From positions 1-64,000 of IMG/VR virus record IMGVR_UViG_3300000553_000006: a DNA stretch of 64,000 nucleotides. The stretch is one strand, 5' to 3'. The position numbers and the translations under genes are program-made. A model generated the notes under the pieces. That model ran no database searches. It saw nothing but the letters and a program-made list of their open reading frames with translations, and had not been told where the DNA came from. This document shows, piece after piece, positions 6,145 to 63,884 of this stretch; the first letter of the stretch is position 1; every line of letters begins with the position of its first letter. Source of the stretch: a virus (taxonomy: Duplodnaviria; Heunggongvirae; Uroviricota; Caudoviricetes).

Positions 6145-6145
6145 A

Positions 6146-7942: not shown

Positions 7943-7951
7943 AATATCTCC

Positions 7952-9068: not shown

Positions 9069-9213
9069 CCAGAAGTGTTGGCTTTCTAGATGTATCAGAA
9101 AATTGGAAATAGAACCGTTGACCGTCTACTACCAAAGTCGCATCGTTCTCCCAGTAATCAATATCTGTGATTTGATACTCTGCAACTTCGATAGTAGGGT
9201 CTTCAATTAGCAT
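9025..9213 (-). CDS. hypothetical protein
   Basis: 62-aa ORF. Confidence 0.35.
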   Translation of the reverse strand: MLIEDPTIEVAEYQITDIDYWENDATLVVDGQRFYFQFSDTSRKPTLLDALRFLQSESKFNV

Positions 9214-23126: not shown

Positions 23127-23565
23127 TTAGTTGGTCAATCGTTTCGACCATTGGTATAGCAAAACGGTCACATACTATTTGCACATTACCTCTGCGCCAG
23201 TAACCTTCTGGGCAACACACAATCATGTTGCTTGTCCGCCCAAACATACCCAACTCTAGCAGAGTAATTGGAGCAGGTCCATCAGGATCAAAATAGACAA
23301 GGATAAGTTGAGCTAACTCCAGAGAATCTAATTCCCAAGTAACTTGCTCACGAAACTTATCGTTGCTGATATCTTGTACCCAACTACTATCCCAGTCATC
23401 TCGCCGAGGATTAGCAATGATTATCTCTAGATCTTCAAGTTCTTTCTCGACTCGTTCCTGCCAGTTAACAGCCTTGCCCATATCAATAGAGCCAGCGAGA
23501 AAAACAACAGGAATCCAATAATCAGGAATTGGATTTGGGGCTTTAACTACTACTGCCATCACCAA
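23074..23565 (-). CDS. nucleoside 2-deoxyribosyltransferase-like (Rcl/DNPH1 fold) protein
   Basis: VVFLAGSIDMG...NPRRDDW...LLELGMFGRTSNMIV matches the NDT/Rcl family layout. Confidence 0.55.
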   Translation of the reverse strand: MVMAVVVKAPNPIPDYWIPVVFLAGSIDMGKAVNWQERVEKELEDLEIIIANPRRDDWDSSWVQDISNDKFREQVTWELDSLELAQLILVYFDPDGPAPITLLELGMFGRTSNMIVCCPEGYWRRGNVQIVCDRFAIPMVETIDQLIDSAKQFLNGEDEYVDE

Positions 23566-26187: not shown

Positions 26188-26955
26188 TTACGCGACTTTA
26201 CGAATTGTCCAGAAATCAGAGGCTAGACCTGGGTGTGTAATGTAATCATAAGGCATGTGGAAATATCCAGACATACCCCAATCTTCACCCCAAGAGTTAC
26301 GAACAATGATACAGTTGTTATCGTCATCGTAACCAACAGCCATTACTGCGTGTCCACCGAGGAACTTCTCGTCTCTAGCTGGCATCTTTAGAATACCGGA
26401 GTCAGCCATCTCTTGAGATTCCATGTTGTCATAAACAGAGAATCCAAATACAAATGGATAACCTTCTACTAGACAAGCCTTCATATGATCAAGATCACCA
26501 TCAGGAATAGCAGAATACTCGAGAACAAGATCCTTCTTTGCATCAACAAAGCAGTTATCAGTTGGCTTTGTTGTTACTTTCGATTGATCAAACTTCCAAT
26601 CAGACTCTGGACAGATACCAAACTCAGCTGTTCCTTTGATTACATCACGAATTACAGCGCCACAGTCTTGATCTGTTGTCTGTGAATAGCTTCTACCATT
26701 CCAATAGATGAATAGACGAGAAGGAACAAAATCAACAAGTCCTTCTTTGCGACGCACAAACTCAACCATTGCTGCAATAGAATTACCAGTGCAGCTGCTT
26801 GTTTGATATTGATTGTAGATTACTGAATCGTGAGGACGAAGGTCAACTTTCTTTGGGAAAGCACCTGGTGCAGCTCCCATTGGCATAGTATAAACGTGGT
26901 CACGGAAGTCAGGAAGTTGAGGCTTCCAACCATATTGATACTGAGTGTCTGACAT
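26188..26955 (-). CDS. papain-like (C1 family) cysteine peptidase
   Basis: QYQTSSCTGNS catalytic-Cys context; GGHAVMAVGYDDD...IVRNSWGEDWG His/Asn block. Confidence 0.65.
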   Translation of the reverse strand: MSDTQYQYGWKPQLPDFRDHVYTMPMGAAPGAFPKKVDLRPHDSVIYNQYQTSSCTGNSIAAMVEFVRRKEGLVDFVPSRLFIYWNGRSYSQTTDQDCGAVIRDVIKGTAEFGICPESDWKFDQSKVTTKPTDNCFVDAKKDLVLEYSAIPDGDLDHMKACLVEGYPFVFGFSVYDNMESQEMADSGILKMPARDEKFLGGHAVMAVGYDDDNNCIIVRNSWGEDWGMSGYFHMPYDYITHPGLASDFWTIRKVA

Positions 26956-26978: not shown

Positions 26979-27410
26979 TCAGACATATTTATCATATGGA
27001 CCATCTACAATTACGACAGCGCCAGGAATTCTTACTTGTTTTGGTAATTCAGTTCCTACTGGGAGAACAACTCGATACTCGTTACCATTGTACATGATGT
27101 AAACAATGGTGTCTTTATCCATCTTCTTAAGGGGTAGCCGGACTGTAGCTCTAGAGCTCTCAATGATACGAAAGAACTTCTCGGAATCTTTTGCTGGTTG
27201 ATAGTGTTCTTTTGGTCTCGGTTGCTGAATGTGATTCTTTGTCAGAAACTCTAATGCTTCTGTGATCAATCTAAACTGTTCAGATGCATTTGGACTCTTG
27301 TTGAGATCAGGATGTGTCTTTAGAGCGAGTTGTCTATACGCTCGCTTAATCTCTTCAATAGTCTGATATGGGCCGCAGTTAAGTAGGCGATAGCTGGTTG
27401 ACAAGTCCAT
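26979..27410 (-). CDS. J-domain (DnaJ-like) protein
   Basis: YRLLNCGPYQTIEEIKRAYRQLALKTHPDLN with HPD tripeptide. Confidence 0.7.
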   Translation of the reverse strand: MDLSTSYRLLNCGPYQTIEEIKRAYRQLALKTHPDLNKSPNASEQFRLITEALEFLTKNHIQQPRPKEHYQPAKDSEKFFRIIESSRATVRLPLKKMDKDTIVYIMYNGNEYRVVLPVGTELPKQVRIPGAVVIVDGPYDKYV

Positions 27411-28815: not shown

Positions 28816-29448
28816 ATGTCAAGCCCAAATGCATATGTGTATAAAATAACGAATACGGTAACTAATGAATTTTATATCGGATACAGATACAAAAACCAAA
28901 GACAAAACGTTCTTCCAGAAAATGATTTGTTTGTTACATATTTCTCTTCATCAAAACGAGTTCTATCTGACATAGAGAAATATGGGAAGTCAAATTTTAT
29001 TTATGAGATAATTTTCCAAGACCAAAATTCTCTATTGTGTTGGGAAAAAGAACAGGAAACAATCAAAGAACTCTGGGGAAATTCTCTTTTACTTAACTCG
29101 AAATATAATGATGTCTCTAGTAAAACAGAACATTACCGAAGAGTTGGTATTGTATCAGAAGAAGCAAGAAAGAAAATGAGTGTTGCAGGAAGAGGGAAAA
29201 CAAAGTCTCTCGAGCATAGAAGAAAAATTGCCGAATCTAATAGAGGTAGAGTAAAATCTCTAGAAGAGAGACAAAAGATATCTAACTCAAGAATTGGGAA
29301 ACCAACAAATAAAGGTAAGTCTCCTCCAAAATTTTCCTGTCCTCACTGCAACAAAGTAGCATCTTGGGCAAATTTACAAAAGTGGCATAATGACAAATGT
29401 AAATTTTATGTCGTTACCTCTTCAATTTCCGAGAAACCTTCCTCGTAA
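28816..29448 (+). CDS. GIY-YIG homing endonuclease with NUMOD3 repeats
   Basis: YVYKITNTVTNEFYIGYRYKN; SLEHRRKIAESNRGRVKSLEERQKIS repeats. Confidence 0.75.
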   Translation: MSSPNAYVYKITNTVTNEFYIGYRYKNQRQNVLPENDLFVTYFSSSKRVLSDIEKYGKSNFIYEIIFQDQNSLLCWEKEQETIKELWGNSLLLNSKYNDVSSKTEHYRRVGIVSEEARKKMSVAGRGKTKSLEHRRKIAESNRGRVKSLEERQKISNSRIGKPTNKGKSPPKFSCPHCNKVASWANLQKWHNDKCKFYVVTSSISEKPSS

Positions 29449-29999
29449 GTGGGATACTCGAAGTTCTTCAACATCGAGTTGATCACATCTTGCGGAATAG
29501 ATTTTCCATCACGAGAATTAAGACGACGCTTCCATTCGTTCTCTTCAGGAGTATTGAAGACAACAGCGTAGAACTTATATCCCTTGTTCTTCAGTCGATC
29601 GATGATGCGCTTACGTGACTTCACCGACATGTTGGTGCGATCGATGTAGATATCGATGTTGTTCTTAGCATCAGCATCAATGTCGCGCCAAAAGATTCGT
29701 TCAGCGAACTGAATCAATTCCTTGAATGAAGCATCGTAAGTCGTACCACAAAGATCACAGATAGTCTGAATGATATTGTCGGTAGAATGAGTCCAGATTT
29801 GAACCTCATTCTTTTTGACCCAAGTCGACTTACCGACGCCAGGAGCACCGATCAGTATGAAACAGTTAGCCATTTCAAATTCCTTTATTACGCGATTATA
29901 ATACCGCACAACCGATTTAATGTCAATCAAAATATAAATAATGATGGCCACGATGCTACCAACATCTGCCATCTCTAATGCTAACAGGAGCACCAGCAC
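29406..29999 (-). CDS. P-loop polynucleotide kinase-like protein
   Basis: [13 protein letters not shown] Walker A; size and context match a Pnk kinase domain. Confidence 0.55.
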
Positions 30000-30596
30000 A
30001 TGACTATTTATTACGTCTATGCATATTTGAGAAACTCAGACAACTCACCATATTACATCGGTAAAGGTACAGGAAATCGTGCATATAAAAGACACGGAAG
30101 AATCAGTGTACCTAATGATAAAACAAAAATTAAAATTCTAGAAACTAATCTAACAGAGATTGGCGCTCTAGCATTAGAGAGACGATACATCCGTTGGTAT
30201 GGTCGTAAAGATTTAGAAACAGGAATATTACTTAATTTGACAGACGGAGGTGAAGGATTACAAGGACTCAAAAGAACTCCAACTCACAAAGCAAATATCT
30301 CGAAGTCTTTGACAGGTAAACCTAAAAAGAAACACACTCAAGAATGGAAGGGTCATATGTCTTCAGTAATGAAGGGAAAAATTCCTTGGAATAAAGGGAT
30401 ACCGCTGTCAAAAGAACACTTAGAGTTAAGAACAAAAGCAGTCAAAGGTATGAGATGGTGGACGAACGGTGAAACAGAAAAGAAATCCTTTGTTCAACCC
30501 GACTCTTCATTCCACATTGGAAGATTAGAAAAGTTTCGCCCACCATCTCAATTAAAGCGTATTCCTTCAAACCAGGTAGAAGCCAGAACTTCATAG
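30000..30596 (+). CDS. GIY-YIG homing endonuclease
   Basis: [29 protein letters not shown]; paralog of 20367 and 49150. Confidence 0.8.
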
Positions 30597-31750
30597 TTCT
30601 TGTTGTTCGAAAGCTTCTTCTTTACATTGTTGATCACAGTCAGATAAGCATTCGTTACCGAGTTGTCATCCCAGAGACTGAAGACAGTAGCACGATCGAG
30701 ATCGCACAACTTAGGGGCAACATTCAGAGCGAAGTTCTTACGGTCCATGCTCTTGCTGTTGTGCTCAGTCTTCATGAACAAACGATCGGCGATCTCCGAA
30801 ATACGGTTTTGAATCTTGATCTTAAAGGCTTGCAGACGCTCACGATCTTCCTTGGGAAGATGAGCCTCAACGTCGTCCAGCTTATTCTCGAGAATCATCT
30901 CAACAATATTCCGGTCTTGAAGAATAGCTTCCTTCGCCTTGTGAATCATCACGTATTCGTCAGTCTTCACCTTGATCTTATGACCACGATCGTCGATCAC
31001 ATATCCTTCGATGCTCTTCTCCTGAGCAACAAAACGAGCAAACTCCTTCAAATCCTTAGTCGGATGAATAACACCAACAACAGGAATGTTGTACCGAGCA
31101 GCCTCAACAGTCAGTTCTTCGTAGTCGATGTATTCACCAGTGTACATACCACGAATGGCAGTCAACACCAGTTCATCTTCTTCGTAGTCAAGAACGATAC
31201 GTTGCTTACGCGAACACCACTCGAAAATCGGAGTAAACCCAATGTCGATCCACTTCTTAGCAAGATCTTCATACGGAGATCCTTGAACGTGCATTTCCAC
31301 AGGAGCAGCAACGTCAGTAATCCCCATCTTGGTTCCCCAGCGGATGATTCCGTAATTGTAGAACGGAGCTATCATCGATCCATCGAGCTTATCCATGATG
31401 TAATGGTTGTCCGACAGATTGACGTTACCAACTTGAGTTTCATCGCGCTCATTCAGATTGAAGAACTTGTGGAACGGACGACGGATGATCTTCCCGGTGT
31501 TCGAGTCGAACATGATTCCGCGACACTCGCGACGCATCTTGTTGTGAAGCATACGCAGCTCGCGCATCTTGGCCGAACCGCCAGCAACCTTGATCGCCGG
31601 AAAGGTATCGGGCATCATCACGTTGTAGTTGAGCACAGTGAAGCCATCGCGCTCAGCCACCACGAATTCCGGAGAACCCTCGATGGCAGGAAGCACGTCG
31701 TCAATGTGGGTGATCAGCGGAAAATCGTAGTGCATTTCGTTCATCCTCAA
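30548..31750 (-). CDS. rnlA: RNA ligase 1 (RnlA-like)
   Basis: [24 protein letters not shown]...MDKLDGSMI aligns with T4 Rnl1 motif I; 400 aa. Confidence 0.75.
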
Positions 31751-32899: not shown

Positions 32900-33583
32900 T
32901 TACCTCTTGTTATAATATTCGCGAATAACATCCATTGCGCCATCTATATAATCATCTCGTTTCTTTATAAAAACTTGACCTGGCGCGGGTGAGTCTGAAG
33001 CCATTACGATTACTATCTGTGGACAACATATTCCAGTCCGTTCTTCCATCATGACGGAGTATATAGCTGTCTGATAAAAGTAGGATAGAATCCAATCAGC
33101 TCTCTTAGGTTTGTTTGCTGACTTGAAATCTAGAATAGAGTTTCTTCCAGACCAACGAACAACAGCGTCAACACGACCTCCAACCTTAAGATAATCAGAG
33201 GTCAGAGGTGTCTCTACACCATAAACAATCTCGATGTTCTCGTCTAGAATGTGTTTAATCTTACCGAAAAGATCCAGCGTTGTTGGCATTACACCACGAC
33301 GATACTCTTTATTCAGTAGATAGTTCTCGCAAACAGTGTGAAGAGCTGTACCTCTGTCGGCTGCTGCTTTGCTGATTCTCTTGGCTTCTTCCTCACCAAC
33401 TCTAGCTTTCCATTCATCAAGTCCAGTCTTATCCATCACACCCATAACTGTAGTAACAGATGGATACCTCGCCCCGTCCGGCGAGGTATAAAATCTTCCA
33501 TATGATAAAGTTTCAACCAATGGATCAGGCAAATCTACTAATTGATGTTCAAACATGTATTCTTCCAATATTCCAAGAACCAT
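32900..33583 (-). CDS. PD-(D/E)XK nuclease-family protein
   Basis: GRVDAVVRWSGRNSILDFKSANK (D-x13-D-F-K). Confidence 0.45.
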   Translation of the reverse strand: MVLGILEEYMFEHQLVDLPDPLVETLSYGRFYTSPDGARYPSVTTVMGVMDKTGLDEWKARVGEEEAKRISKAAADRGTALHTVCENYLLNKEYRRGVMPTTLDLFGKIKHILDENIEIVYGVETPLTSDYLKVGGRVDAVVRWSGRNSILDFKSANKPKRADWILSYFYQTAIYSVMMEERTGICCPQIVIVMASDSPAPGQVFIKKRDDYIDGAMDVIREYYNKR

Positions 33584-34238
33584 CAGCAGATTCTGTAAAT
33601 CTTAGATAGTTTCTTTTTCCATCATTATACCATTTTCTTCCAGTGAGATAAGAATAATCGATATTCTTTCTAGCATCAGAAAGTTTTTTGCAAGTTTCTA
33701 GAGAAGGTTTCTTACCTTTATGAGATAAACTATTTTTCTTTCTTTGATCCTCAGTTAGTTTTCTTCCTGTGTTTGCAACACTTATTTTTCTTTTATGTTC
33801 ATCAGAAAAAATTTTACCTTTATTTGCAGCATTACCTATGCTTGCTTTTGCTATTTTGTCTTTTGTTTCTTGAGATTGTTTAAATCCTGGAATTCTATAG
33901 AAATCTTTGGCTCCATTTGATTTATTGAGCCAAAGATTTGATTTAGCTGCATTAAGTTTTCTTAATACAGCGTTTTCCCAAAATAAACATTTTTCCTTTG
34001 ATGTAAATGTCTTTCTGATTTCTATCACATCAGGCTCACCATATTGGTGTCTAAATGCAGCAACAACCTTTGAAGAAGTGAAATACGTTACCCAAAGATC
34101 GCTTGGGTTCGCTGTTTTGTTAAATTGGGCGCCATAATACCACTTATTGTGATTGCGCCAACCTATAAGGTATGTGTATGGGACATAAATAGTCATAGCT
34201 GGTTCTCCTCGTAGAACTAGAGCCTGGGGGAAGTGCAA
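33549..34238 (-). CDS. GIY-YIG homing endonuclease (seg-like) with NUMOD3 repeats
   Basis: YVPYTYLIGWRNHNKWYYGAQ; SQETKDKIAKASIGN repeats. Confidence 0.65.
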   Translation of the reverse strand: MHFPQALVLRGEPAMTIYVPYTYLIGWRNHNKWYYGAQFNKTANPSDLWVTYFTSSKVVAAFRHQYGEPDVIEIRKTFTSKEKCLFWENAVLRKLNAAKSNLWLNKSNGAKDFYRIPGFKQSQETKDKIAKASIGNAANKGKIFSDEHKRKISVANTGRKLTEDQRKKNSLSHKGKKPSLETCKKLSDARKNIDYSYLTGRKWYNDGKRNYLRFTESADGSWNIGRIHV

Positions 34239-36971: not shown

Positions 36972-37439
36972 ATGATTATATATGATCCTATCGCAACCTT
37001 TCTTGGTGTAACACCATGTTACGTAGATTACGATAATCTACCAATAACTCCATCTAATCATACTCACAATCCTCTTTGGTTACGTCCGGGTGGATGGAAA
37101 CATGATGATGAAGCGAAGAAAAAGATGAGTAAAGCTAAGAAAGGTAAACCAGGACCAAAGAAATCTAAAGAAACAAAGCAAAAAATGGGTGAATCACATA
37201 GAGGTATACCAAGACCAGATGTTAGTCTTCTCCATAAAGGTAAAATCTTATCTGATGAGACAAAAGAAAAGATTAGAATAGCGAGAGCTAAACAAATTTC
37301 ACAACCACATAATGAAGAAACTAAGTTAAAAATATCTTTAGCAAAGACAGGCAAAAAGCGCAAACCTTTTACCGAAGAGCACAAAAGAAAGATGAGTGAG
37401 TCAGCTAGAATTCGCCGACTGAAGTCATCAAATTCTTAA
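36972..37439 (+). CDS. NUMOD3-repeat DNA-binding protein (homing-endonuclease-derived; no clear catalytic domain)
   Basis: Repeated KxKxSxAxxGK blocks; shares the conserved HE leader. Confidence 0.55.
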   Translation: MIIYDPIATFLGVTPCYVDYDNLPITPSNHTHNPLWLRPGGWKHDDEAKKKMSKAKKGKPGPKKSKETKQKMGESHRGIPRPDVSLLHKGKILSDETKEKIRIARAKQISQPHNEETKLKISLAKTGKKRKPFTEEHKRKMSESARIRRLKSSNS

Positions 37440-44142: not shown

Positions 44143-44216
44143 TGGCATGGGTACTAAGAGTCGAACTCAGGCTTACAGTTTTGGAGACTGTCGTGCTACC
44201 GTAACACTTTACCCAC
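44143..44216 (-). tRNA. tRNA-Trp (CCA)
   Basis: Anticodon arm ACAGT-CTCCAAA-ACTGT, T-loop GAGTTCGACTC, encoded CCA. Confidence 0.7.
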
Positions 44217-44526
44217 ACATGTATTTCTTATTTTTACCAGCGTATGTCTCAGTTTGAGAATGGCAGTTAGGACAAAGAAAGGTTAAATTATCTAATCTAT
44301 TGTCGTTATTTACACCATTCTTGTGTTCTAACTGAAGAGAAATAGATTTCCCATTCCACTCATCAGAAAGTCCGCAATCTGAACAAACATAATCTATCAG
44401 TTTTTGCTTAATTACTCTTTCTTTTAACCTATGTCTAGGATAATTTGAATTTTCAACAAAAACAGTATCATTAGAAAATTTTCTACTAGCTGCAGATAAT
44501 AGCAACCCTTGTATATTTCTTGGCAT
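44209..44526 (-). CDS. HNH endonuclease
   Basis: CSDCGLSDEW...HKNGVNNDNRLDNLTFLCPNCH; minus-sense TATAAATA late box at about 44550. Confidence 0.7.
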   Translation of the reverse strand: MPRNIQGLLLSAASRKFSNDTVFVENSNYPRHRLKERVIKQKLIDYVCSDCGLSDEWNGKSISLQLEHKNGVNNDNRLDNLTFLCPNCHSQTETYAGKNKKYMCG

Positions 44527-44583
44527 AAGCTATCTCCTCTTTAGAGATATTTATATACCGTCGGTTCTAAGAACCGAAGAAAA

Positions 44584-44658
44584 TGGTGGAGGATAAGGGA
44601 ATCGAACCCTTGCTTCATGCTTGCAAAGCACGAGTGCTACCATTATCACCAATCCCCC
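44584..44658 (-). tRNA. tRNA-Ala (UGC)
   Basis: Anticodon arm CGTGC-TTTGCAA-GCATG; G3.U70 identity pair present; CCA. Confidence 0.7.
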
Positions 44659-44664
44659 ATTATA

Positions 44665-44740
44665 TGGTGCCGCAACGAGGAATCGAACCCCGGACATCCT
44701 GCTTACAAGGCAGGCGCTCTTCCAACTGAGCTATTACGGC
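44665..44740 (-). tRNA. tRNA-Thr (UGU)
   Basis: Anticodon arm CCTGC-CTTGTAA-GCAGG; D-arm GCTCAGTTGGAAGAGC; CCA. Confidence 0.75.
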
Positions 44741-44787
44741 ATAATTACTCTTTATTTATAAATATCTAAGCAGCTAAGGAGAAGAAT

Positions 44788-45147
44788 ATGATTGAACATA
44801 TCGAAAAAATCAACACAAAGATCGCACTTACGGTAACAGATGTCGTAGGTACAATGTGGTGCGCGTATATTTTCGCAGTTCTAGCAGTACTCAGTCTTCC
44901 TACAGCTATTGCTGGTGGTATCGCAACTCTAATTTCTTGGGTCGCTCAAACTTTCCTTCAACTCGTACTTCTATCAGTCATCATGGTTGGACAACGTATT
45001 CAAAGCGAGAGAACTGAGAAGCGAGACGAAGAAGATCACGTAACCATCATGAACGAATTCGCAGAAATTAAACAAATGCATAACGAAATAAAAGAAATCT
45101 TGGCTCTTGAAAAGCAAGATGCTGCTCAAGAGAAGCGTGGAGTCTAG
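44788..45147 (+). CDS. membrane protein
   Basis: 119 aa, two TM helices; TATAAATA late box at 44757..44764 and an AAGGAGA RBS. Confidence 0.55.
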   Translation: MIEHIEKINTKIALTVTDVVGTMWCAYIFAVLAVLSLPTAIAGGIATLISWVAQTFLQLVLLSVIMVGQRIQSERTEKRDEEDHVTIMNEFAEIKQMHNEIKEILALEKQDAAQEKRGV

Positions 45148-45154
45148 AGAGTAT

Positions 45155-45230
45155 TGGAGTGCACGACAGGATTCGAACCTGCATTAAACTGAGTTGCAAT
45201 CAGTTGACTAACCATTCATACCACGTGCAC
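45155..45230 (-). tRNA. tRNA-Cys (GCA)
   Basis: Anticodon arm ACTGA-TTGCAAC-TCAGT; acceptor GTGCACG/CGTGCAC; CCA. Confidence 0.7.
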
Positions 45231-45810
45231 GTAATTTTCTATATCTTAATCCTTTACTCCATCCCGTCATATTTAGGAATTCTTCTTCAGTTACCATTTT
45301 AGATTTCTGCAAATCATCATTAGAAACCCAAAATTTACCTTTACTGTGATGATGTTCTAACAGTTTTTTAGAAAGTGCTGGACCATTTTTCCTATTAATT
45401 TCAGTCATCTTTTCACAAAACTTGTCACGATATGACTGATCAATTTTGATTCTATTCCCGTGAATTAAATGTTGATCAACTTTATGATTTAATCCAAATT
45501 TATTCACATAATAGAAATTTGCAGGTCCACCCAATTTTACATTATACACATCATTTCTATCTAAAAATTCTTCCGTTACTAATTCTATTTCTCTATCATA
45601 CATATTTTCTTCAGTATCAAACCACTCTATAATTTCTTTAGAAAAATTCTCAATTCCATACTTTTTTATAGCAGATTTAATACCTTTTCCAGATCCCATA
45701 TATCCATCATCTATATTAGAAGTTTTATGGACCCCAACATATATTTTGCCGTTCAGTCTATTTCTAATTTGATATAGATAGTAATACATAAGAATCTCCA
45801 TTCTCTTCAT
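45208..45810 (-). CDS. GIY-YIG homing endonuclease
   Basis: YYYLYQIRNRLNGKIYVGVHKT...DGYMGSG; its stop overlaps the 5' end of tRNA-Cys; late box at about 45822. Confidence 0.75.
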   Translation of the reverse strand: MKRMEILMYYYLYQIRNRLNGKIYVGVHKTSNIDDGYMGSGKGIKSAIKKYGIENFSKEIIEWFDTEENMYDREIELVTEEFLDRNDVYNVKLGGPANFYYVNKFGLNHKVDQHLIHGNRIKIDQSYRDKFCEKMTEINRKNGPALSKKLLEHHHSKGKFWVSNDDLQKSKMVTEEEFLNMTGWSKGLRYRKLRARGMNG

Positions 45811-45848
45811 TACTATTTATATAAACGCAGACCGTTACCTAGAAGATA

Positions 45849-45923
45849 TGGCACCCACATCCAGAATCGAACTGGAATCGACCGTTTAGAAGACGGTAGC
45901 TCTGTCCGTTGAGCTATGCGGGC
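45849..45923 (-). tRNA. tRNA-Arg (UCU)
   Basis: Anticodon arm ACCGT-CTTCTAA-ACGGT; CCA. Confidence 0.7.
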
Positions 45924-45929
45924 TCAAAA

Positions 45930-46004
45930 TGGTACTGGAGCCCAGAATTGAACTGGAGACTCAGGGGACACAATCCTGCATTTTACCAATTAAACTACTC
46001 CAGC
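45930..46004 (-). tRNA. tRNA-His (GUG), probable
   Basis: Anticodon loop TTGTGTC in a CAGGA/CCCTG stem with one mismatch; CCA. Confidence 0.55.
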
Positions 46005-46202
46005 TCACTCTTGATCAATAACCAGATAGCAAAATCTATGAACAATATCGAAAGACTCGATTACCTTAATCGCGCGCTCATCGTTTGCTTTTGCTTTCAC
46101 ATGTAGATCAAGAATATAATCTCGTAGACGAAAAAAATTGTAAGCATCTTGGAGAAGATCACCAAGATCCAGAACTTGTTCAACAGTCACATTCTGTTTC
46201 AT
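46005..46202 (-). CDS. hypothetical protein
   Basis: 65-aa ORF. Confidence 0.35.
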   Translation of the reverse strand: MKQNVTVEQVLDLGDLLQDAYNFFRLRDYILDLHVKAKANDERAIKVIESFDIVHRFCYLVIDQE

Positions 46203-46211
46203 AATATATCC

Positions 46212-46826
46212 TTAAAGAGTCTTTCGACCTTTATTATAACCTAGTGCCAAATAATAATCAAGCTGTTCTTTTTTAATTTTAAGAATACGTTGTCCATTAT
46301 TTATCCAACAAGTACCAAATTGAGAATTTTTAGATCCTTTTTGGTGTTCTTTTTCGTGCAAAGTATTTTTTCTTTTTAATTTGGCATCTTCAGTATTGGC
46401 AAATAATGAAGCAATCTTTATATTATTCTTTCTAGCTCTTAGTTTATTTTCACTTTCAATTTTAAGATTTAATTTATTCAATTTTCCTGAAATTTTTCCA
46501 CCCAATCTATATGCTTCAATAGGAACCAATCCATTTGCATTGATATACCCAAATCCACCTTTACCACCAGGACATAGATTATAGGTATCCTCTCGTGTAC
46601 AAAACTCTTCGGTAACCAATTCTTTCTCTTTAGCATTCATTTCTTCTTCCGAATCAAATACAAAGAGAATTTCTTTAGTAAACTTATCTAATCCATATTT
46701 CTTTTGGGCTCTACGTAATGATTGACCAGAACCCATATATCCATCATCCAAATCTTTTGTTTGATGTTTACCAATATAGATTTTGTTGTTTACAGAACAA
46801 GTAATTTTGTAGATAGTATAAAACAT
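46212..46826 (-). CDS. GIY-YIG homing endonuclease, paralog of 6332..6955
   Basis: MFYTIYKITCSVNNKIYIGKHQTKDLDDGYMGSG. Confidence 0.8.
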   Translation of the reverse strand: MFYTIYKITCSVNNKIYIGKHQTKDLDDGYMGSGQSLRRAQKKYGLDKFTKEILFVFDSEEEMNAKEKELVTEEFCTREDTYNLCPGGKGGFGYINANGLVPIEAYRLGGKISGKLNKLNLKIESENKLRARKNNIKIASLFANTEDAKLKRKNTLHEKEHQKGSKNSQFGTCWINNGQRILKIKKEQLDYYLALGYNKGRKTL

Positions 46827-46833
46827 ATTAGTG

Positions 46834-46883
46834 TCCCAGGAAATATAGAAAGGTCTTAGTATGCCTATTTATATTTCCTGGGA
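46834..46883 (-). promoter_or_regulatory. leader hairpin (14-bp perfect stem) upstream of the GIY-YIG gene
   Basis: Arms TCCCAGGAAATATA/TATATTTCCTGGGA around the same conserved loop as at 6926..6965; contains a minus-sense TATAAATA. Confidence 0.55.
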
Positions 46884-46889
46884 CTGAAG

Positions 46890-46979
46890 TAGTCCTGCTA
46901 GGACTCGAACCTAGATCGTTCACCCGTCCGGTGATCATGCCTTATAAGGACACCGCTCTGCCAATTGAGCTACAAGACT
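46890..46979 (-). tRNA. type II tRNA with 22-nt variable arm, anticodon reads UAU as folded; no encoded CCA
   Basis: Acceptor AGTCTTG/CAGGACT, D-arm GCTC-AATTGGCA-GAGC, anticodon arm GTGTC-CTTATAA-GGCAT (2 G.U), T-arm CTAGG-TTCGAGT-CCTAG. Confidence 0.5.
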
Positions 46980-46987
46980 ACATAATT

Positions 46988-47072
46988 TGGTGCGAATGAG
47001 AGGACTCGAACCTCCACCCCTTTCGGGACTGGTTTCTAAGACCAGCGCGTCTACCAATTCCGCCACACTCGC
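46988..47072 (-). tRNA. tRNA-Leu (UAG)
   Basis: Anticodon arm CTGGT-CTTAGAA-ACCAG, long variable arm, CCA; 85 nt. Confidence 0.75.
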
Positions 47073-47186
47073 ATTATTTTCCGTCTAGTAAAAGACAAAG
47101 AAAGCCTACTATCCAAACCCAAAGTGGCGCATTATAGTGCCAACATACCAGAAAGCCAAAAATAGCAAGCATTTCTCATCCTCAAA

Positions 47187-47262
47187 TGGTGCCGACGGCA
47201 GGGATCGCACCCGCATCTGCTGGGTTTCAACCAGCCGCTAAGACTACATCAGCTACGACGGC
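47187..47262 (-). tRNA. tRNA-Phe (GAA)
   Basis: Anticodon arm GCTGG-TTGAAAC-CCAGC; CCA. Confidence 0.65.
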
Positions 47263-47269
47263 GTAATAT

Positions 47270-47346
47270 TGGAAGGGGATACGGGACTCGAACCCGCATT
47301 AGTGGATTGAAAGTCCACTGTCCTAGTCCAATTAGACGAATCCCCC
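47270..47346 (-). tRNA. tRNA-Glu (UUC)
   Basis: Anticodon arm GTGGA-CTTTCAA-TCCAC; T-loop GGTTCGAGTCC; CCA. Confidence 0.7.
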
Positions 47347-47388
47347 AGAGTTCTTATTTAGTCATTGTAACCGAAGCAGCCAATAAAA

Positions 47389-47667
47389 TCAAGCACTTTT
47401 TTTGAACAAAGGACATTTATGTACAGGCGCTTCAGTCTCGTCTTCGAATTTTACACCAACGAGGCGCCAACCTTCAGGTCGTTGTTCCCAATGAAGGTTG
47501 GGCGCTCCGCAGTGCTTACATTCTTTTGTCTTGGGCTTATACTGACGTCGCGAACGACCATTAAATGTATAATCATCAGCAAAACAGTCTTCAGCATAGA
47601 AGTCTGATTGATCATGATAATACTCGTCGAACATAGCTTCGACAGCCATGTCAGCATATTCACCCAT
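47389..47667 (-). CDS. hypothetical protein
   Basis: 92-aa ORF with CKHC...C cysteines. Confidence 0.4.
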   Translation of the reverse strand: MGEYADMAVEAMFDEYYHDQSDFYAEDCFADDYTFNGRSRRQYKPKTKECKHCGAPNLHWEQRPEGWRLVGVKFEDETEAPVHKCPLFKKSA

Positions 47668-47669
47668 AA

Positions 47670-48527
47670 TTACACTCGAATCCTCTTTTTAATTTCCTCG
47701 AAAGACTCATCCTTAACAAGTTTACCATCAAGATAGACAGTTTCAAGACAATCGTTGGCATCGTGATTGCTTTCAAGAGTGAACCAATTGTGTCCATCTT
47801 GACGCAGAACCAGTCGACCCTTCTTGCTCTTCTTGCCAGGATCAGTAATCGGATCCTTGGCGATAGCAAGATCCTTACCATTCACACGAATGTTGCTCGC
47901 CTTGAACGCAAACTTATTCGTGTCTCGATTGATATCGACTTGCATCAGACCACCGCCTGAACCAGTCATAATCGAATCAGCAGAGATATGCATGTCTAGA
48001 GCAATCTGGAACGGAACAGCCACAGTGTCTTCGTTGATACCGTCACCCCACAGAACCTTGACGTTGTTCAGAACTTTGTATCCCTTGTTATTCCGAGTGA
48101 AGCCAAAGCCCTTCTCAAGAATAGCCAGGACTTGAGGAAGAACAACCTCAATATCGCCGCTGTCAGGACGAACGACGAGAGTGATATTCTTCTCGACGAT
48201 CTTATCCTTCAGAGACACCCACTTACGAGCCGCATCGTAGATGTTCCAAGTGTCCGAAACAACAGACAGAATAGAACCAGGTTCAGCGACATCAACCAGA
48301 CGTTCGAACGAAGCAAGTTCGTTCTCTTGACCGTAGCTACACATGATGCTGTGTTCAGTAGCAGCCACGGAGTAACCCATGATCTTACCACCATACAGCT
48401 TACGAACCCAGTCGATAGCAGACATACTGTCCGAACCGGCGAAGTTCAGTAGATGCGCAGCACCACCGATCTGATTGCTCTCGAAAGAAGAGCAGCGATG
48501 GCTCCGATAGAAGCAATCTTTCTCATA
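47670..48527 (-). pseudogene. nadV: nicotinamide phosphoribosyltransferase (NadV/Nampt) C-terminal portion, N-terminal ~180 aa missing
   Basis: GGAAHLLNFAGSD...GYSVAATEHS...RPDSGD...KGRLVLRQDGHNW aligns with Nampt residues ~185-480 from memory; an in-frame TAA at 48528..48530 separates it from an unrelated low-complexity ORF. Confidence 0.55.
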
Positions 48528-48821
48528 TTACCAGCTCCCCGACGATCCGCCGGCGGCGGTCGAGCCGCCATCGCCAGAAAAATCACTGCTGCTGCCAGAG
48601 TCATAACTCGGACCCGGATCATAGCTAGGAGTAGACATACTGTCTATAATCGATTCAGCAACAATAACAGAAGCCATTGTACTAGCGAAAGAATCATCGC
48701 TAGAAACATAAGTATCGTCCGAAGTCCTCGTCCGATTCCTCTCAACCAGCTGCCAAGGATGGTTCTTCTTGAAAAGAGACTTCTTAATTTCACCAGTGAT
48801 AGAGTGCTTGTATTCATACAT
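48528..48821 (-). CDS. Ser/Asp/Gly-rich low-complexity ORF (same frame as the nadV fragment)
   Basis: 97 aa, GC-rich low-complexity DNA; may be non-functional. Confidence 0.3.
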   Translation of the reverse strand: MYEYKHSITGEIKKSLFKKNHPWQLVERNRTRTSDDTYVSSDDSFASTMASVIVAESIIDSMSTPSYDPGPSYDSGSSSDFSGDGGSTAAGGSSGSW

Positions 48822-49149
48822 GATATTTAGTTTTCCCTAGTAAAGTTCAGCGAGAATGCTGTCTGCCCAATCAAACCAATCGAGCTCTTCACGCTCGACC
48901 TTTTCGTTGTTACGGATCTTCCGCATAATCTCGCAGTACTTAGCCTGCATGGCTAAGAACCCTTGTTCGATCATCGGAAACTTAAAGACTTTGATATCCA
49001 TCTCAATCCCTCCTACAACGGTTACATACTTAGTATACCGTCAGGATGAATTAATAGCAAGTCCCAAAATTATTTTTTTGATATAAATAGAATGCTAGTC
49101 GCGGACTGCCATCCCACTAGCTCTAGTCCTCGTTCAAAGAGCCCAGCAC

Positions 49150-49701
49150 ATGTTTATTTATTACGTCTATGCTTACCTTCGTAAATCTGATGGATCTCCA
49201 TATTACATCGGAAAAGGTAAAGGAAAGAGAGCGTTTGACAAAAGTCATTCTGTCTCTGTACCTAAAGACAAATCAAAAATAATTTTCCTCGAAACACATC
49301 TATCTAATCTGGGTGCATGCGCATTAGAACGTAGATATATTCGCTGGTATGGACGTAAAGATTTAGGAACAGGTATCCTTCTTAATAAGACAGAAGGAGG
49401 GGATGGAAATTCTGGAAAAAGATCTAAATTGTGGAGAGAAAACCACAGTAAAATAATGTCCGGAGAAAACAACCCTTCTAAGAGACCTGAAGTAAAAGAA
49501 AAACAAAGAATGACTGATAAATCTTATATGCAGAAAGATGACTACAAGAACAAAATCTCCCAAGCAAATAAGAAAGCAATCATTACTCCAAACGGTAAAT
49601 TCAAATCAGTTGGAGAAGCTATCTCTAGTTACAATACGACTCCACACTACTTTTACAAGATGATGAAATCTAGCCCGAAGGAGTTTTATACTGTGCTTTA
49701 A
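49150..49701 (+). CDS. GIY-YIG homing endonuclease
   Basis: [29 protein letters not shown]; conserved leader at 49083..49149. Confidence 0.8.
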
Positions 49702-50128
49702 GGTGTGAACTTGAGACTCTACATTGAACATAGTCGTTGTAGTAATCTTCTCTAATGATTGCATCAGTTTCTAGAATCATCTTCGATTCATAATACGTGC
49801 ATTGCGAACGATTGTCGCAGAGCCTTACGATTTCTCGGGTAAAGTTATAGTGTCCCAATTGTTCGATATCAGCTTGGAGTAATTTAGATGAACCCCAATA
49901 AGATTTCCAGTCGCTTGGCTTTCTGATACGCTTTCTCTTACCTTTAACTGTCTTATAACCAGCCGACGAGAAGAGTTTCTTTCCGATGTATCTTCTTCCA
50001 GTGGTAATATTAGTAATGACATAAACAAATCCGAAGTGCGCATCAGCTAAACTCTCATCAAAATTAATCCCTTGATATGTCCACCAAGGTTCCTCACTCA
50101 TCTTCTTCGAAGTCTTCGTCTTCATCAA
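49670..50128 (-). CDS. short GIY-YIG nuclease
   Basis: [26 protein letters not shown] core; 152 aa; converges on 49150..49701. Confidence 0.6.
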
Positions 50129-50255
50129 CTAGATTTAGTTCTGAAGAACAATACGGACAGAATTCTAGACTGCCCATGGCGACTGACGTAACGATCTTAA
50201 ATTCGGATTCGCAGGCGTCGCAATTAATCCAACTATCCCATCTATCTACCATTTA

Positions 50256-50726
50256 CTACTCCAGTTTTGTTACTTTAACTCCACCGCGAGTAAGCAAATC
50301 GATGCCAGATCTATCACGGTAGTCATCTTTATATATGACTTCGGCGATTTTGGCTTGTAACATGAGTTTTGCGCAGTCTCCACAAGGACTTAGCGTAACG
50401 AAAACTGTTGCGCCTTCTGAAGATTCAGTTGAAGCGGCGAGTTTAGCAATCGCATTCAACTCAGCGTGTAGAACTTCTGGTTTAGTTTTTAGAGCTACGC
50501 GACCTCCGTTTGCTCCATCAAAATACGGACCATTAAAGTCCATTTTATAATCTATCTCTTCTTCACAATTATTATTATCCCAACCAGCTGGCGTGCCATT
50601 GTAACCGAACGAGATAATACTCCTGTCCTTTACAATGACACATCCAACCTTAGTTCTTCTAGCATAAGAAAGATCCGCCGTTTCTTCAGCAACTCTCATA
50701 AAATAATTGACGAATTTTTCTTTCAT
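50256..50726 (-). CDS. cd: dCMP deaminase
   Basis: HAELNAI and SPCGDCAKLM zinc-binding motifs. Confidence 0.8.
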   Translation of the reverse strand: MKEKFVNYFMRVAEETADLSYARRTKVGCVIVKDRSIISFGYNGTPAGWDNNNCEEEIDYKMDFNGPYFDGANGGRVALKTKPEVLHAELNAIAKLAASTESSEGATVFVTLSPCGDCAKLMLQAKIAEVIYKDDYRDRSGIDLLTRGGVKVTKLE

Positions 50727-52889: not shown

Positions 52890-55175
52890 CTAGATAGTAC
52901 AGCTGTCACAATTTTCTTGATCTAATTCTCCTAGTTTTACAGCAAAAGAAGATTCAGTAATTTCTCCAGCGCCATCTGAAGTATTGAAGTAATATAAGGT
53001 CTTACCACCAAGTTTATAGTGTAGAAGAATATGTCCTAGCATTTCTGAGACTGGGATCTTCTCTTCAGGATAGAAGATAGGATTGTAAGAGGTATTTACA
53101 GAAATGGCTTGGTCCATATACTTTTGAATCACAGCCATAATCTTGAGATATCCCTCAGGACTGCGTTGATCCCATAGCAATTCGTATTTATTCTTCATAC
53201 GACGGAAGTCAGGGACAACTTGCTTGAGAACTCCATCCTTTGATACTTTAACAGAAACAAATGCTCTTGGTGGTTCAACACCATTTGTAGCATTAATGAT
53301 CTGTGATGAAGTCTCAGATGGCATACAAGCCATTAGTGTGGCGTTACGAATACCATGAAGCTTGGCATCAGCCTTGAGGCTTTCCCAGTCCATATGATAA
53401 ACTGGAGTAACAATAGTGTCAAGCTCTTTCTTATACGTATCAATCGGGAAAATGCCGTGAGCATACTTTACAGCTTCACCGCCCTTACATGGACCAAACT
53501 CTTTCGCAAGTTGTACAGAAGCTTTGATCAAATAGTAAGACCAAGCTTCACACATCTCATCAATCTTAGCCAGATTTGGATTGGTGTATGTCATATCATT
53601 CTTTGCCATCCAGTAAGCAAGATTATTCAATCCTACACCAAGAGGACGGTACTTCTCGGTAGAGTTACGTGCAGCCAAAACAGGATAGTTTTGGTAGCTA
53701 AGAAGAGCGTCAAGCCCGCGTACTGCAAGCTCACAAGGCTTCTCAAAATCCTTAGATGATCTGATCTTACCTAGATTAATCGCTGTTAGAGTACAAAGAG
53801 CGATCTCTCCATTAGGATCATTAACATCATTAAGAGGAACAGTTGGTAGTGTAATCTCTGTACATAGATTGCTCATTCTGATTGGAGCAAGATCTGTAAT
53901 GAATGAACCGTGATCGTTACAGTGATCAACATTCATAAGATATACTCGTCCAGTGTCCTTCCGTTCTTGTATGAACGACGTGAAAAGGTCAATGGCTTTA
54001 ACTGTCCGCTTTCTAATCTTAGTTGAACGCTCGTACTTCTCGTATAGAGTGCGGAAAGTGTCTGTGTTTGAGAAGAACGCTTCGTAGAGGTCAGGTACAT
54101 CAGATGGAGAAAACAGAGTGATGTTCCCGCCAGTAATAAGTCTTTCATACATGACTTTATTGAATTGGACGCCGTAGTCAAGATGTCTTGCACGATTATC
54201 CTCCGTACCTTTGTTGTTCTTCAGAACAAGCATGTCCTCGATTTCTAAGTGCCAGACCGGATAATAGAGCGTTGCAGCACCGCCTCGAACACCCCCTTGG
54301 GAGCACGATTTGACAGCACTTTGAAAATGTTTATAAAAAGGAATAACTCCAGTATGAGAAGCATCACCATTGCGAATAGGGGAGCCAAGAGCACGTATGC
54401 GCCCAGCTCCAATACCAATACCAGCCTTTTGAGAAACATACTTAACGATCGCCGATGCCGTCGCGTTAATACTGTCAAGGGAATCCTCCGTTTCAATTAA
54501 TACGCATGATGAGAATTGACGTTGAGGAGTTCTAACGCCAGCCATCACAGGTGTGGGTAATGAGAAATCAAAGGTAGAGATCGCGTCGTAGTATTCCTTG
54601 ACGTACTTAAGGCGAGTTTCCTTTGGATAGTTTGAGAACAACGCAGCTGAGATAAGAATGAACGCCATTTGTGGCGTTTCAAAGATCTCTCCAGTTGTTC
54701 TATTCTTTACAAGATACTTACCACGGAACTGCTCCATTGCAGCATAAGTGAGAAGATAATCTCGGTCGTGATTAATGTAACCATTAATTGAGTTCCATTC
54801 TTGTTCGTTGTATGCAGCAAGTAGATCCTTATCATAGAAACCGAACTTGACAACATTCTTTACATGGTCAAGAAGGTGTATAGGCTCGTATTGCCCATAC
54901 ACTTCCTTGCGAAGATGGTAGTTAATCAGGCGACCACCAACGTATTGGTAGTTCGGAGTCTCTTCCGAGATAAGATCAGCTGCAGCCTTGATCAAAGTCT
55001 CTTGAATATCAGAGGTCTTGATCTTATCGTAAAACTGAATTTGAGACTTCAGTTCAATTTCTGAAGCTGATACATTATTGATTCCTTGACAAGCAAGAAT
55101 ACACACACCGTGGAACTTGTTTAGATCGAGAGGTTCCTTGTCTCCGTTACGTTTTGTTACTACAATTCCTGACAT
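52890..55175 (-). CDS. nrdA: ribonucleotide reductase class Ia alpha subunit
   Basis: 761 aa, N-terminal ATP-cone, C-terminal CDSC redox pair. Confidence 0.85.
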   Translation of the reverse strand: MSGIVVTKRNGDKEPLDLNKFHGVCILACQGINNVSASEIELKSQIQFYDKIKTSDIQETLIKAAADLISEETPNYQYVGGRLINYHLRKEVYGQYEPIHLLDHVKNVVKFGFYDKDLLAAYNEQEWNSINGYINHDRDYLLTYAAMEQFRGKYLVKNRTTGEIFETPQMAFILISAALFSNYPKETRLKYVKEYYDAISTFDFSLPTPVMAGVRTPQRQFSSCVLIETEDSLDSINATASAIVKYVSQKAGIGIGAGRIRALGSPIRNGDASHTGVIPFYKHFQSAVKSCSQGGVRGGAATLYYPVWHLEIEDMLVLKNNKGTEDNRARHLDYGVQFNKVMYERLITGGNITLFSPSDVPDLYEAFFSNTDTFRTLYEKYERSTKIRKRTVKAIDLFTSFIQERKDTGRVYLMNVDHCNDHGSFITDLAPIRMSNLCTEITLPTVPLNDVNDPNGEIALCTLTAINLGKIRSSKDFEKPCELAVRGLDALLSYQNYPVLAARNSTEKYRPLGVGLNNLAYWMAKNDMTYTNPNLAKIDEMCEAWSYYLIKASVQLAKEFGPCKGGEAVKYAHGIFPIDTYKKELDTIVTPVYHMDWESLKADAKLHGIRNATLMACMPSETSSQIINATNGVEPPRAFVSVKVSKDGVLKQVVPDFRRMKNKYELLWDQRSPEGYLKIMAVIQKYMDQAISVNTSYNPIFYPEEKIPVSEMLGHILLHYKLGGKTLYYFNTSDGAGEITESSFAVKLGELDQENCDSCTI

Positions 55176-55747
55176 ACTTTTCCTACTCTACAATTGTCAA
55201 AATGCCATCTTTTCATACCACTACCATATCCAGATTTACCACATTTATTACATGTATGTTTTTGTTGAGAATGGTGTGTGCCAGAATCTAGTTGTTTCTT
55301 TTGCGCTTTTCTTTGTGTATCACCACCAATAAAGTGATGAGTTCCGTTTTCTATTCTTTTCTGTGTAGTCTTTCTAGAAATTTCGCCACCAATAAAGTGG
55401 TGTGTTCCAGCATCAACTCTTTTCTTAGCAGATATTTTAGCGACTTCACCACCAAGAAAATTATGTGTACCTTCTTCAACTCGTTTTCTAGAATTTTTTC
55501 TAGCTATCTGAGATATTATTTCTCCAGACATATTCATTCTAATTAATACTGCTTGTGCAGCTGCCCAGTCTTCTTGGTCATAATGAATTTTATAGTGGTC
55601 ATCAATAGATAATGCAATCAAGTTGCTAATATCGTTATTTTGATTGTTCCCATCCTTGTGATGAATATCAAATGTTCTACCGTATTCATCACAAGGAATA
55701 GGTCCATATACACTTTCGTATAATCTTCTGTAATCAGTCATAAGCAA
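55160..55747 (-). CDS. HNH homing endonuclease
   Basis: TFDIHHKDGNNQNNDISNLIALSIDDHYKIH; late box at about 55768. Confidence 0.7.
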   Translation of the reverse strand: MLMTDYRRLYESVYGPIPCDEYGRTFDIHHKDGNNQNNDISNLIALSIDDHYKIHYDQEDWAAAQAVLIRMNMSGEIISQIARKNSRKRVEEGTHNFLGGEVAKISAKKRVDAGTHHFIGGEISRKTTQKRIENGTHHFIGGDTQRKAQKKQLDSGTHHSQQKHTCNKCGKSGYGSGMKRWHFDNCRVGKVCQEL

Positions 55748-57170: not shown

Positions 57171-57746
57171 TTATTCCTTTCTATATACCATACCAGCTAC
57201 CCAGTCTGAGCCGGGTGATACTTTAGATCGTTTTCTTTTACCTTCTGGATTTACCCACCAAATAGTATTTTGTACAGCTTTACTTCCATGACTATTGGAA
57301 GTAGTATCTAAAAATCCAGCACACCTTTCTTTAGCAACTAATCCAGCACGTTGAGCATTTTTTCTTGCTAATATAGGATCTGCATTTATAGCGTGTATCC
57401 CAACTTTATTCTTTACAGTTTTATATGCTGCTTGAGTTGATATTTCAGATCTTCTTTCTTTAGACATTTTTTGGAAATTGTGATTTCCAGAATCATAAAT
57501 TTTCTTTTGAGATAAAGAAGCAGCGTTTTTAATTTCTTCTTTACTTGCTCCATTTATTCTAAGTAATATAGCTTGGACTGCACCCCAATCATTCTGCTTT
57601 TTGTGTATTTCTAAATGCTCTTGAATAGTTACTAACTGAAGATTAGTTGGATCGTCATTAAAATGATTACCGTCTATATGGTGAATTTCATAACCCTCTG
57701 GAATTTTTAGATTATTATATTCTTCCCAAATTTTTCTATAGTGCAT
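57171..57746 (-). CDS. HNH homing endonuclease
   Basis: EIHHIDGNHFNDDPTNLQLVTIQEHLEIH; late box at 57782..57789. Confidence 0.7.
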   Translation of the reverse strand: MHYRKIWEEYNNLKIPEGYEIHHIDGNHFNDDPTNLQLVTIQEHLEIHKKQNDWGAVQAILLRINGASKEEIKNAASLSQKKIYDSGNHNFQKMSKERRSEISTQAAYKTVKNKVGIHAINADPILARKNAQRAGLVAKERCAGFLDTTSNSHGSKAVQNTIWWVNPEGKRKRSKVSPGSDWVAGMVYRKE

Positions 57747-63443: not shown

Positions 63444-63884
63444 TTATCGTCCCTTTAAGGATGCGCGAAGCATCCAGCCGTGTTTGCTATGAACATCAAT
63501 TCGTTCTTCAAGGAAGTTAACGATAGCTGGTTCATTTTCTTTCTCAGCGAAAGCATGAGTTTCTTTGAGATTCTTAATCACGATCTCATTGTCAGCAAGA
63601 AGTTGCTTGATCATTCCCATACCAGAAGGGATGGTAGTTTCATCTTTGATATCAGTGAGTTCACTGAATCGTGAAAACGAACCTGGTACATACTCATCAA
63701 GTGTACGTAGGTGCTCTGCAACCGCGTCCACAGCCTCCCACACTTCTGTATAGAGAGTGTCAAAGAACTTATGATACTCATAGAAATCCGGACCCTCTAC
63801 GTTCCAGTGGAAATTATGAGTCTTCAAATAGAAGGCGAATGTGTCTGCAACATTAACCTTGAGCATATCACCCAGCTTCGACAT
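63444..63884 (-). CDS. Dps-like ferritin-fold protein
   Basis: VADTFAFYLKTHNFHWNVEGPDFYEYHKFFDTLYTEVWEAVDAVAEHL fits the Dps ferroxidase-site consensus. Confidence 0.6.
   Translation of the reverse strand: MSKLGDMLKVNVADTFAFYLKTHNFHWNVEGPDFYEYHKFFDTLYTEVWEAVDAVAEHLRTLDEYVPGSFSRFSELTDIKDETTIPSGMGMIKQLLADNEIVIKNLKETHAFAEKENEPAIVNFLEERIDVHSKHGWMLRASLKGR

Follow-up and report, generated by a model that had tools for sequence, protein, structure and literature searches.

Analysis of a 64,000-nucleotide stretch of an uncultivated, probably freshwater phage (Caudoviricetes; positions 1 to 64,000 of IMG/VR record IMGVR_UViG_3300000553_000006, here called the window) revealed a 5'-truncated copy of nadV, the gene for a phage nicotinamide phosphoribosyltransferase (Nampt). 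It is fairly likely that this copy is a recently made, probably inactive remnant, and that the event behind it was associated with an intron or an endonuclease and took away natV, the gene for the NatV partner, as well. The break lies at the codons for DFGA|RG. In nadV of other phage contigs, these codons have taken insertions more than once, namely a group I intron with an HNH gene and a GIY-YIG endonuclease gene.

Identity and extent of the nadV remnant

On the minus strand, a frame of 285 codons was open from 48527 to the stop codon at 47672..47670, and the motifs GGAAHLLNF, GYSVAATEHS, RPDSGD, and KKSKKGRL were all read in it. The TAA at 48530..48528 closed a 97-codon open reading frame (ORF; 48821..48528) lying in the same frame as the remnant. 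The coordinates, the TAA, and the motifs were as given in a preliminary description made from the letters alone. Similarity searches gave strong Nampt matches. The Pfam family PF04095 (NAPRTase) matched frame residues 11-265 (1.4e-32; profile positions 10-235 of 239), and phrog_448, the phage Nampt family, matched residues 11-284 (5e-87; profile positions 201-494 of 500). The bacterial Nampt structure 7yqo aligned over its residues 195-474 with 3.5e-60, compared with about 1e-34 for the weakest PDB entries named Nampt, and human NAMPT aligned from residue 198. A C-terminal hidden Markov model (HMM) from 112 homologs scored 1.6e-133 on the fragment, and P0002, a full-length metagenomic NadV of 458 aa encoded beside a NadM-Nudix gene, was 69% identical to it. 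The closest relatives of the fragment were NatV-linked Nampts. Judged by these scores, the similarity to Nampt lay far beyond chance.

The preliminary description had about 285 C-terminal residues of NadV remaining. The 5' truncation and the 285-codon frame were correct, but all profile alignments began at frame residue 9-11, so that only about 275 codons (48497..47673) were truly Nampt. The earliest in-frame ATG, GTG, or TTG was at 48425 and gave a 251-aa ORF, which gene callers also reported on 11 contigs. In an ungapped alignment of the junction, the equivalents of Phe193, Arg196, and Gly197 were Y, H, and R. Residue numbers are those of human Nampt, mapped through PDB and family alignments; the family alignment comprised 112 full-length close homologs, all listed with both Pfam domains (PF04095 and PF18127). 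The features of the remnant were as follows.

47670..48497, minus strand: nadV remnant of 275 codons plus stop, homologous to Nampt from about residue 196 to the end (NAPRTase catalytic domain and C-terminal strands), corresponding to "exon 2" of the interrupted nadV in other phages
47670..48425, minus strand: the only conventional ORF in the remnant, 251 aa; its start Met is a conserved internal residue of the family (GSDSM)
48498..48527, minus strand: junction YEKDCFYRSH, 10 in-frame codons with no convincing Nampt homology; all HMM alignments start downstream of it
48446..48526, minus strand: out-of-frame 26-codon ORF MRKIASIGAIAALLSRAIRSVVLRIY, with its ATG one base past the TAA and a good Shine-Dalgarno sequence, ending 20 nt before the ATG at 48425

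Absence of the N-terminal half and of NatV

A Pfam scan found no NAMPT_N domain (PF18127) on the fragment ORF. When four full-length NadVs (CcrBL10, RsoM2USA, L015, and P0002) were compared with the 64-kb window by tblastn, only 48509..47679 was matched, and an N-terminal-half HMM from the 112 close homologs, run unfiltered on all six frames of the window, gave nothing below E=1. By profile HMM, the N-terminal half was absent from the 15 kb upstream and the 47 kb downstream of the remnant. A weak match at 10927-11067 (E=0.05) turned out to be an unrelated ORF. For the whole window, both methods upheld the earlier statement that the N-terminal ~180 residues, which form the dimer interface, are absent, and no frame nearby contained the missing half. 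An Nmnat/NatV partner was not found in the 64-kb window either: tblastn with two NatV queries gave nothing below E=0.4, and a Pfam scan of about 56 window ORFs, which covers the 64-kb window and not the whole genome, showed no Nmnat, CTP_transf_like, NUDIX, or PRPS-like domain.

A search with the N-terminal 177 aa of P0002, the closest homolog, returned 42 short N-terminal proteins. Two candidates for a displaced half were traced, namely the best match and the sole one with the same jgi/lgn/ena source mix, and both belonged to other samples. P0128, the best match (60%, ERZ27314275), was rejected as the lost half because it came from a different sample and phage and had a break of its own. None of the 42 proteins showed the multi-contig footprint of the window phage. 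These results bear on the possibility that the gene is split, with the N-terminal half and natV encoded outside the 64-kb window and the halves assembling in trans, as with nrdA of phage Aeh1. This possibility is in keeping with the partial coverage of the genome and with the location of the split at a domain boundary, and genes that are split by a homing endonuclease gene (HEG) and stay functional are known in T4-like phages. However, no two halves flank an endonuclease gene in the window, since no N-terminal half was present on either side; the traced short N-terminal proteins were foreign; and the 251-aa ORF has no good start. A split gene is considered most improbable.

The locus in independent assemblies

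Twelve contigs, from at least 11 samples and from ENA, JGI, and Logan assemblies, matched the window at 99.98-100% and had the same junction. Because these independently assembled contigs carry the same layout, an assembly error is excluded, and the layout is real and fixed across the population. That an assembly chimera or a sequencing artefact, for example a frameshift masking an intact gene, produced the locus was only an a priori possibility. With the shared junction, and with N-terminal homology in no frame, it is effectively refuted already, and its probability is virtually nil. The contigs differed by five singletons, and because all five are transversions, they are suggested to be sequencing or assembly errors. 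The copies were otherwise identical, and the within-population ratio of nonsynonymous to synonymous substitution rates (dN/dS) was uninformative.

In contig k141_207491 (L013; ENA ERZ27271872), the sole change in 6311 bp relative to the window was T->G at 48530. The resulting GAA in place of TAA joins the 97-aa ORF and the nadV remnant into a continuous ORF of 383 aa (P0121). This allele may be an error. A 157-aa "fusion" of the 97-aa ORF with the adjacent 54-aa ORF (P0124) was rejected as a gene-call artefact in which TAG was read as Gln, the DNA of its contig (L014; ENA ERZ27271861) being identical to the window; some public gene calls for this phage evidently used a TAG-recoded genetic code. 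A megablast of the locus against cultured phages (INPHARED) gave no match, and the best relative in an IMG/VR search reached 62%.

Position of the break

The homology in the window starts at the Arg196/Gly197 codons, at most one codon from the invariant DFGA|RG insertion site. Invariant active-site motifs are typical targets of homing elements. Four distinct N-terminal-only ORFs (P0136, P0137, P0138, and P0140) all ended in ...DFGA, and the stop codon after DFGA was read in the DNA of two contigs, L029 (P0136) and L027 (P0138). P0133 ended 7 residues past this point, and P0128 ended in ...DFSARG followed by 29 unrelated residues. Broken nadV at this site was checked at the DNA level in three contigs, L029, L027, and L028. 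In L029 (JGI 3300007539 Ga0099849_1086050), positions 729-984 held a complete Rfam group I intron (63 bits, gathering score 50, E=3e-14); its 5' end spans the GCT (Ala) codon of DFGA, and an HNH-type ORF follows from 1034. L027 (JGI 3300078335 Ga0643540_0002747, 6001-7950) carried natV, nadV codons 6-175, and then, at the same codon, a 407-aa GIY-YIG gene on the opposite strand. After the endonuclease gene, nadV resumes at (N)GASSAETATLGGMAHLINF and then has an internal deletion of ~220 codons. In L027, nadV was independently killed at this site. The break in L028 (P0144; Logan SRR12989705, 738-1512) was a mere 1-nt frameshift in the DFGARG codons. In a further contig, L021 (JGI 3300017692, 1407-2783), nadV was broken by a single in-frame TAA. 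The gene seems to be often inactivated, or error-prone in assemblies.

The L029 intron was sought in nadV of cultured phages, and only generic intron-core matches were obtained. No report connecting nadV with homing endonucleases or introns was found in the literature searched. The preliminary description had raised disruption of the gene by homing endonucleases. This idea gains real support from the coincidence of the break with the intron and HEG site of other phage nadV genes, from which we infer the causal link.

The block upstream of the remnant

Upstream of the remnant were, in order, the 97-aa ORF, the 54-aa ORF, two GIY-YIG ORFs, a dCMP deaminase gene, and ribonucleotide reductase genes. 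The first four were as follows.

48528..48821, minus strand: independent 97-aa ORF with an S/D/G-rich tail (...GGSSGSW-TAA), a separate gene in frame with the remnant
48837..49001, minus strand: 54-aa ORF with the strongest Shine-Dalgarno sequence in the window and no family match; part of the block replacing natV and the 5' part of nadV
49150..49701, plus strand: GIY-YIG/Seg-like homing endonuclease gene (phrog_15526, 4.8e-21), on the strand opposite to nadV and 620 nt upstream of the remnant
49670..50128, minus strand: SegE-like GIY-YIG homing endonuclease gene (PF19835, 1.7e-33), convergent and overlapping with the 49150..49701 gene

The 97 codons before the TAA had been described as free of Nampt similarity, and Pfam and profile HMM searches likewise showed none. 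They had also been described as GC-rich, which holds for the last 37 codons (60% GC, compared with 42% for the window) but not for the rest of the ORF. The tail of the protein (...SIIDSMSTPSYDPGPSYDSGSSSDFSGDGGSTAAGGSSGSW-stop) aligned to the end of phrog_14698 (profile positions 194-264 of 264, E=3e-6) and also with P0127, a 137-aa protein from an unrelated phage context that ends in ...ESIIDSTPSYDPTPSYDSGPSYDPGPS...GGAGGGSDW-stop. Because the tail matches both of these C-termini, the Trp-stop appears to be a native terminus and the ORF a gene of its own. The claim that the remnant is fused in frame across the TAA to a low-complexity ORF was not borne out, and a 1-in-3 coincidence is the simplest account of the shared frame.

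The 49150..49701 gene is a candidate agent or relic of the disruption. Its tblastn matches were "group I intron endonuclease" and "Seg-like homing endonuclease" genes of large phages, and it has the opposite-strand orientation of the endonuclease gene inside the nadV of L027.

Conservation downstream of the junction

Downstream of the junction, the nadV fragment contained no stop codon and no frameshift. Compared with the 112 homologs, it deviated at none of the 33 invariant columns, none of the 54 columns conserved at ≥97%, and one of the 77 conserved at ≥90%, which is better than the median homolog. Within the junction, it deviated at three invariant positions, whereas from frame residue 12 onward all invariant columns were retained. 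The abruptness with which non-homologous sequence gives way to perfect conservation indicates a recombination breakpoint and not gradual erosion. In Tajima-type relative-rate counts with five valid outgroups, 12-19 changes occurred only in the window copy and 18-23 only in its sister P0002, and by this measure no rate acceleration was seen on the fragment. The description of the locus as a decaying copy was not supported, given the intact frame, the unchanged near-invariant positions, and the lack of excess lineage-specific substitutions. For its other suggestion, a repurposed domain, nothing was found in support.

The preserved fragment fits either recent truncation or continuing constraint, which identical copies cannot separate. 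One alternative is that the C-terminal Nampt domain was kept for a function, as the 251-aa protein or as the 383-aa chimera formed by read-through or by the GAA allele; such a domain could bind nicotinamide, PRPP (phosphoribosyl pyrophosphate), or NMN (nicotinamide mononucleotide), or it could poison or partner the host Nampt dimer. The intact frame, the retention of all invariant residues after the junction, including His247, Arg311, Asp313, and GDG, and the unaccelerated rate would agree with this, as would the GAA allele itself, since a random singleton would hit that stop codon with a chance of about 0.2% by our own estimate. However, all five singletons being transversions suggests errors, and the 97-aa ORF has its native stop. 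No other short form occurred among the 120 closest homologs, and the start signals were weak, with a conserved internal Met as the start. The 251-aa product also lacks the dimer interface and the equivalents of Tyr18, Asp16, Phe193, Arg196, and Asp219. Two apparent members of a conserved family of short Nampt proteins were rejected, P0101 as a nonsense allele and P0028 because its contig ends within it. Retention for function is quite improbable. Selection of the stand-alone domain as a new short protein or as the 383-aa chimera, acting on NAD metabolism without NAMPT_N, for instance as a ligand sponge or a dominant-negative partner of host Nampt, with conservation due to function and not to youth, is very improbable.

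Translation signals and expected product

The Shine-Dalgarno pairing of the ATG at 48425 was -3.2 kcal/mol, in the bottom 21% of 66 window genes, and that of the out-of-frame ATG at 48526 was better, at -7.3 kcal/mol. Because the ATG at 48425 is a conserved internal Met with a weak Shine-Dalgarno sequence, the translation signals of the fragment do not appear adapted. The 26-codon ORF at 48446-48526 may couple or block translation of the fragment.

The 251-aa product retains the equivalents of His247, Arg311, and Asp313 and the GDG and GGG motifs, and it lacks those of Phe193, Arg196, and Asp219, the last lying upstream of the sole start codon. NAMPT_N supplies the dimer interface and the Tyr18/Asp16 equivalents for the active site of the partner subunit. 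Because this domain and the equivalents of Phe193, Arg196, and Asp219 are missing, the product is very probably inactive as Nampt. Of the elements of a functional NadV, the PF04095 catalytic domain was present, while NAMPT_N was absent and no Nmnat was co-encoded in the window. The locus also did not resemble a Namat system (NARP1), as Pfam scans of the window showed no PRPS-like (Adps) ORF. The locus is likely a non-functional remnant.

Origin of the remnant

In relatives with full-length nadV (the P0002 contig, L015, and CcrBL10), natV lies directly upstream, and in L015 and L027 nadV is followed by tRNA genes. Because relatives show the order natV-nadV-tRNA, the 3' flank of the fragment is taken as the ancestral neighbourhood, in which natV and nadV codons 1 to ~195 were replaced. 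The ancestor would have carried a natV-nadV pair, the two genes of the NAD+ reconstitution pathway NARP2, just upstream of the tRNA island. A homing element aimed at the conserved DFGARG-coding sequence would then have invaded or cut nadV at the DFGA|RG codons, and repair or later recombination would have removed everything 5' of them, that is, exon 1 and natV. The replacing block would be the two GIY-YIG endonuclease genes and the two small ORFs. The surviving exon 2, which has the same orientation as its neighbours, would have been carried along and is probably transcribed through read-through; at most, it would be translated as the 251-aa piece without the N-terminal dimer and active-site elements. 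With no decay visible so far, the break is taken as recent on the evolutionary scale of the gene. NARP2 uses up PRPP and is costly or toxic, the toxicity having been seen on cloning (bioRxiv 10.1101/2024.02.11.579819), which makes its loss plausible.

Several observations weigh against this scheme. An Rfam scan of 47300-50400 (E up to 1) detected no Intron_gpI, with L029 as the positive control at 63 bits. Exon 1 was likewise absent from the window. The window GIY-YIG genes showed no significant homology to the L027 endonuclease gene beyond the shared fold, and two non-endonuclease ORFs separate the endonuclease gene from the remnant. The boundary is also a Pfam domain boundary, compatible with a chance deletion. 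The perfect preservation and the fewer lineage-specific changes than in P0002 fit purifying selection equally. Only 64 kb of the genome is covered.

The lack of intron RNA and of endonuclease kinship would fit a plain deletion, in which illegitimate recombination ended at the domain boundary by chance and the endonuclease genes reflect an HE (homing endonuclease)-rich genome. Such ORFs occur throughout the window (at least eight of the GIY-YIG/Seg-like type and two HNH), so that proximity of one to the remnant is expected, and the "same-site" break of L028/P0144 amounts to no more than a 1-nt frameshift. However, the break falls at most one codon from a site that holds an intron in L029 and an HEG in L027, and the chance of a break within one codon of that site in a gene of ~460 codons is about 1% by our own estimate. 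A plain deletion is unlikely, and an endonuclease- or intron-associated origin is modestly favoured.

Genomic context

The window resembled a large phage with a nucleotide-metabolism and RNA-repair region (dCMP deaminase, ThyX, two RNA ligases, RNase H, and PhoH in Pfam), and a ribonucleotide-reductase small subunit was annotated on a contig matching it. The homing-endonuclease-rich tRNA island previously described beside the locus was confirmed, as ten tRNA genes (44143-47346) and several GIY-YIG ORFs flank the remnant. ARAGORN predicted a 91-nt tRNA-Ile(TAT) at 46889-46979 and an 85-nt tRNA-Leu(TAG) at 46988-47072, both on the minus strand. The unusual length of the former may reflect a long variable arm, an insertion, or a mis-assigned identity. 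Homing-endonuclease ORFs were dense in the 64 kb, with eight of the GIY-YIG/Seg-like/NUMOD3 type and two HNH; several were opposite in strand to their neighbours, and several lay inside the tRNA island. Their positions and those of other genes of the window are given below.

6332-6955, 28816-29448 (plus strand), 33549-34238, 36972-37439 (plus strand), 45208-45810, 46212-46826, 49150-49701 (plus strand), 49670-50128, 55160-55747, 57171-57746: homing-endonuclease ORFs
4715-5086, 9207-10235, 29406-29999, 30548-31750, minus strand: RNA-repair-like set, comprising a cREC_REC "cyclic-phosphate processing receiver" protein, an Rnl2-type RNA ligase, a P-loop kinase (AAA_33/KTI12-like), and a T4 Rnl1-type RNA ligase
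23074-23565, 26188-26955, 26979-27410, 63444-63884, minus strand: unusual phage accessory genes, for nucleoside 2-deoxyribosyltransferase-like, papain-family cysteine protease, DnaJ-domain, and ferritin-like proteins

Relation to known systems and significance

NadV and NatV of Vibrio phage KVP40 are an example of the NARP2 pathway. The fragment shares with such NadV/Nampt proteins the Nampt-type catalytic domain, with motifs intact from the His247 equivalent on, but it lacks NAMPT_N (~175-195 residues) and the Phe193/Arg196 equivalents, has 251 aa in place of ~460, and has no NatV in the window. Interrupted phage genes are known from the td, nrdB, and nrdD introns of T4, from Aeh1 nrdA split by mobE, and from the T4 seg genes. 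The window is like these intron- or HEG-interrupted genes in that the break lies in an invariant active-site motif with GIY-YIG genes nearby. In the T4 and Aeh1 systems, however, neither half is lost, and splicing or subunit assembly restores function, whereas the window has no 5' half and, in 47300-50400, no detectable intron RNA. In the degraded nadV alleles of L027, L021, and L028, nadV is likewise broken, but those keep the 5' part and natV, and the window keeps only the 3' part. Events of this kind are already known, and the fragment adds a further instance; recurrent intron or HEG insertion at DFGA|RG in phage nadV was not found in the literature searched.

The locus indicates that phages both acquire and lose the anti-defence pathway NARP2, which agrees with the metabolic cost reported for it, and that invasions at DFGA|RG can end in the death of the gene, as in L027 and probably the window. 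Surveys that count Nampt domains may score such fragments as anti-defence genes. The DFGA|RG codons also offer a natural target site for characterising new homing endonucleases.

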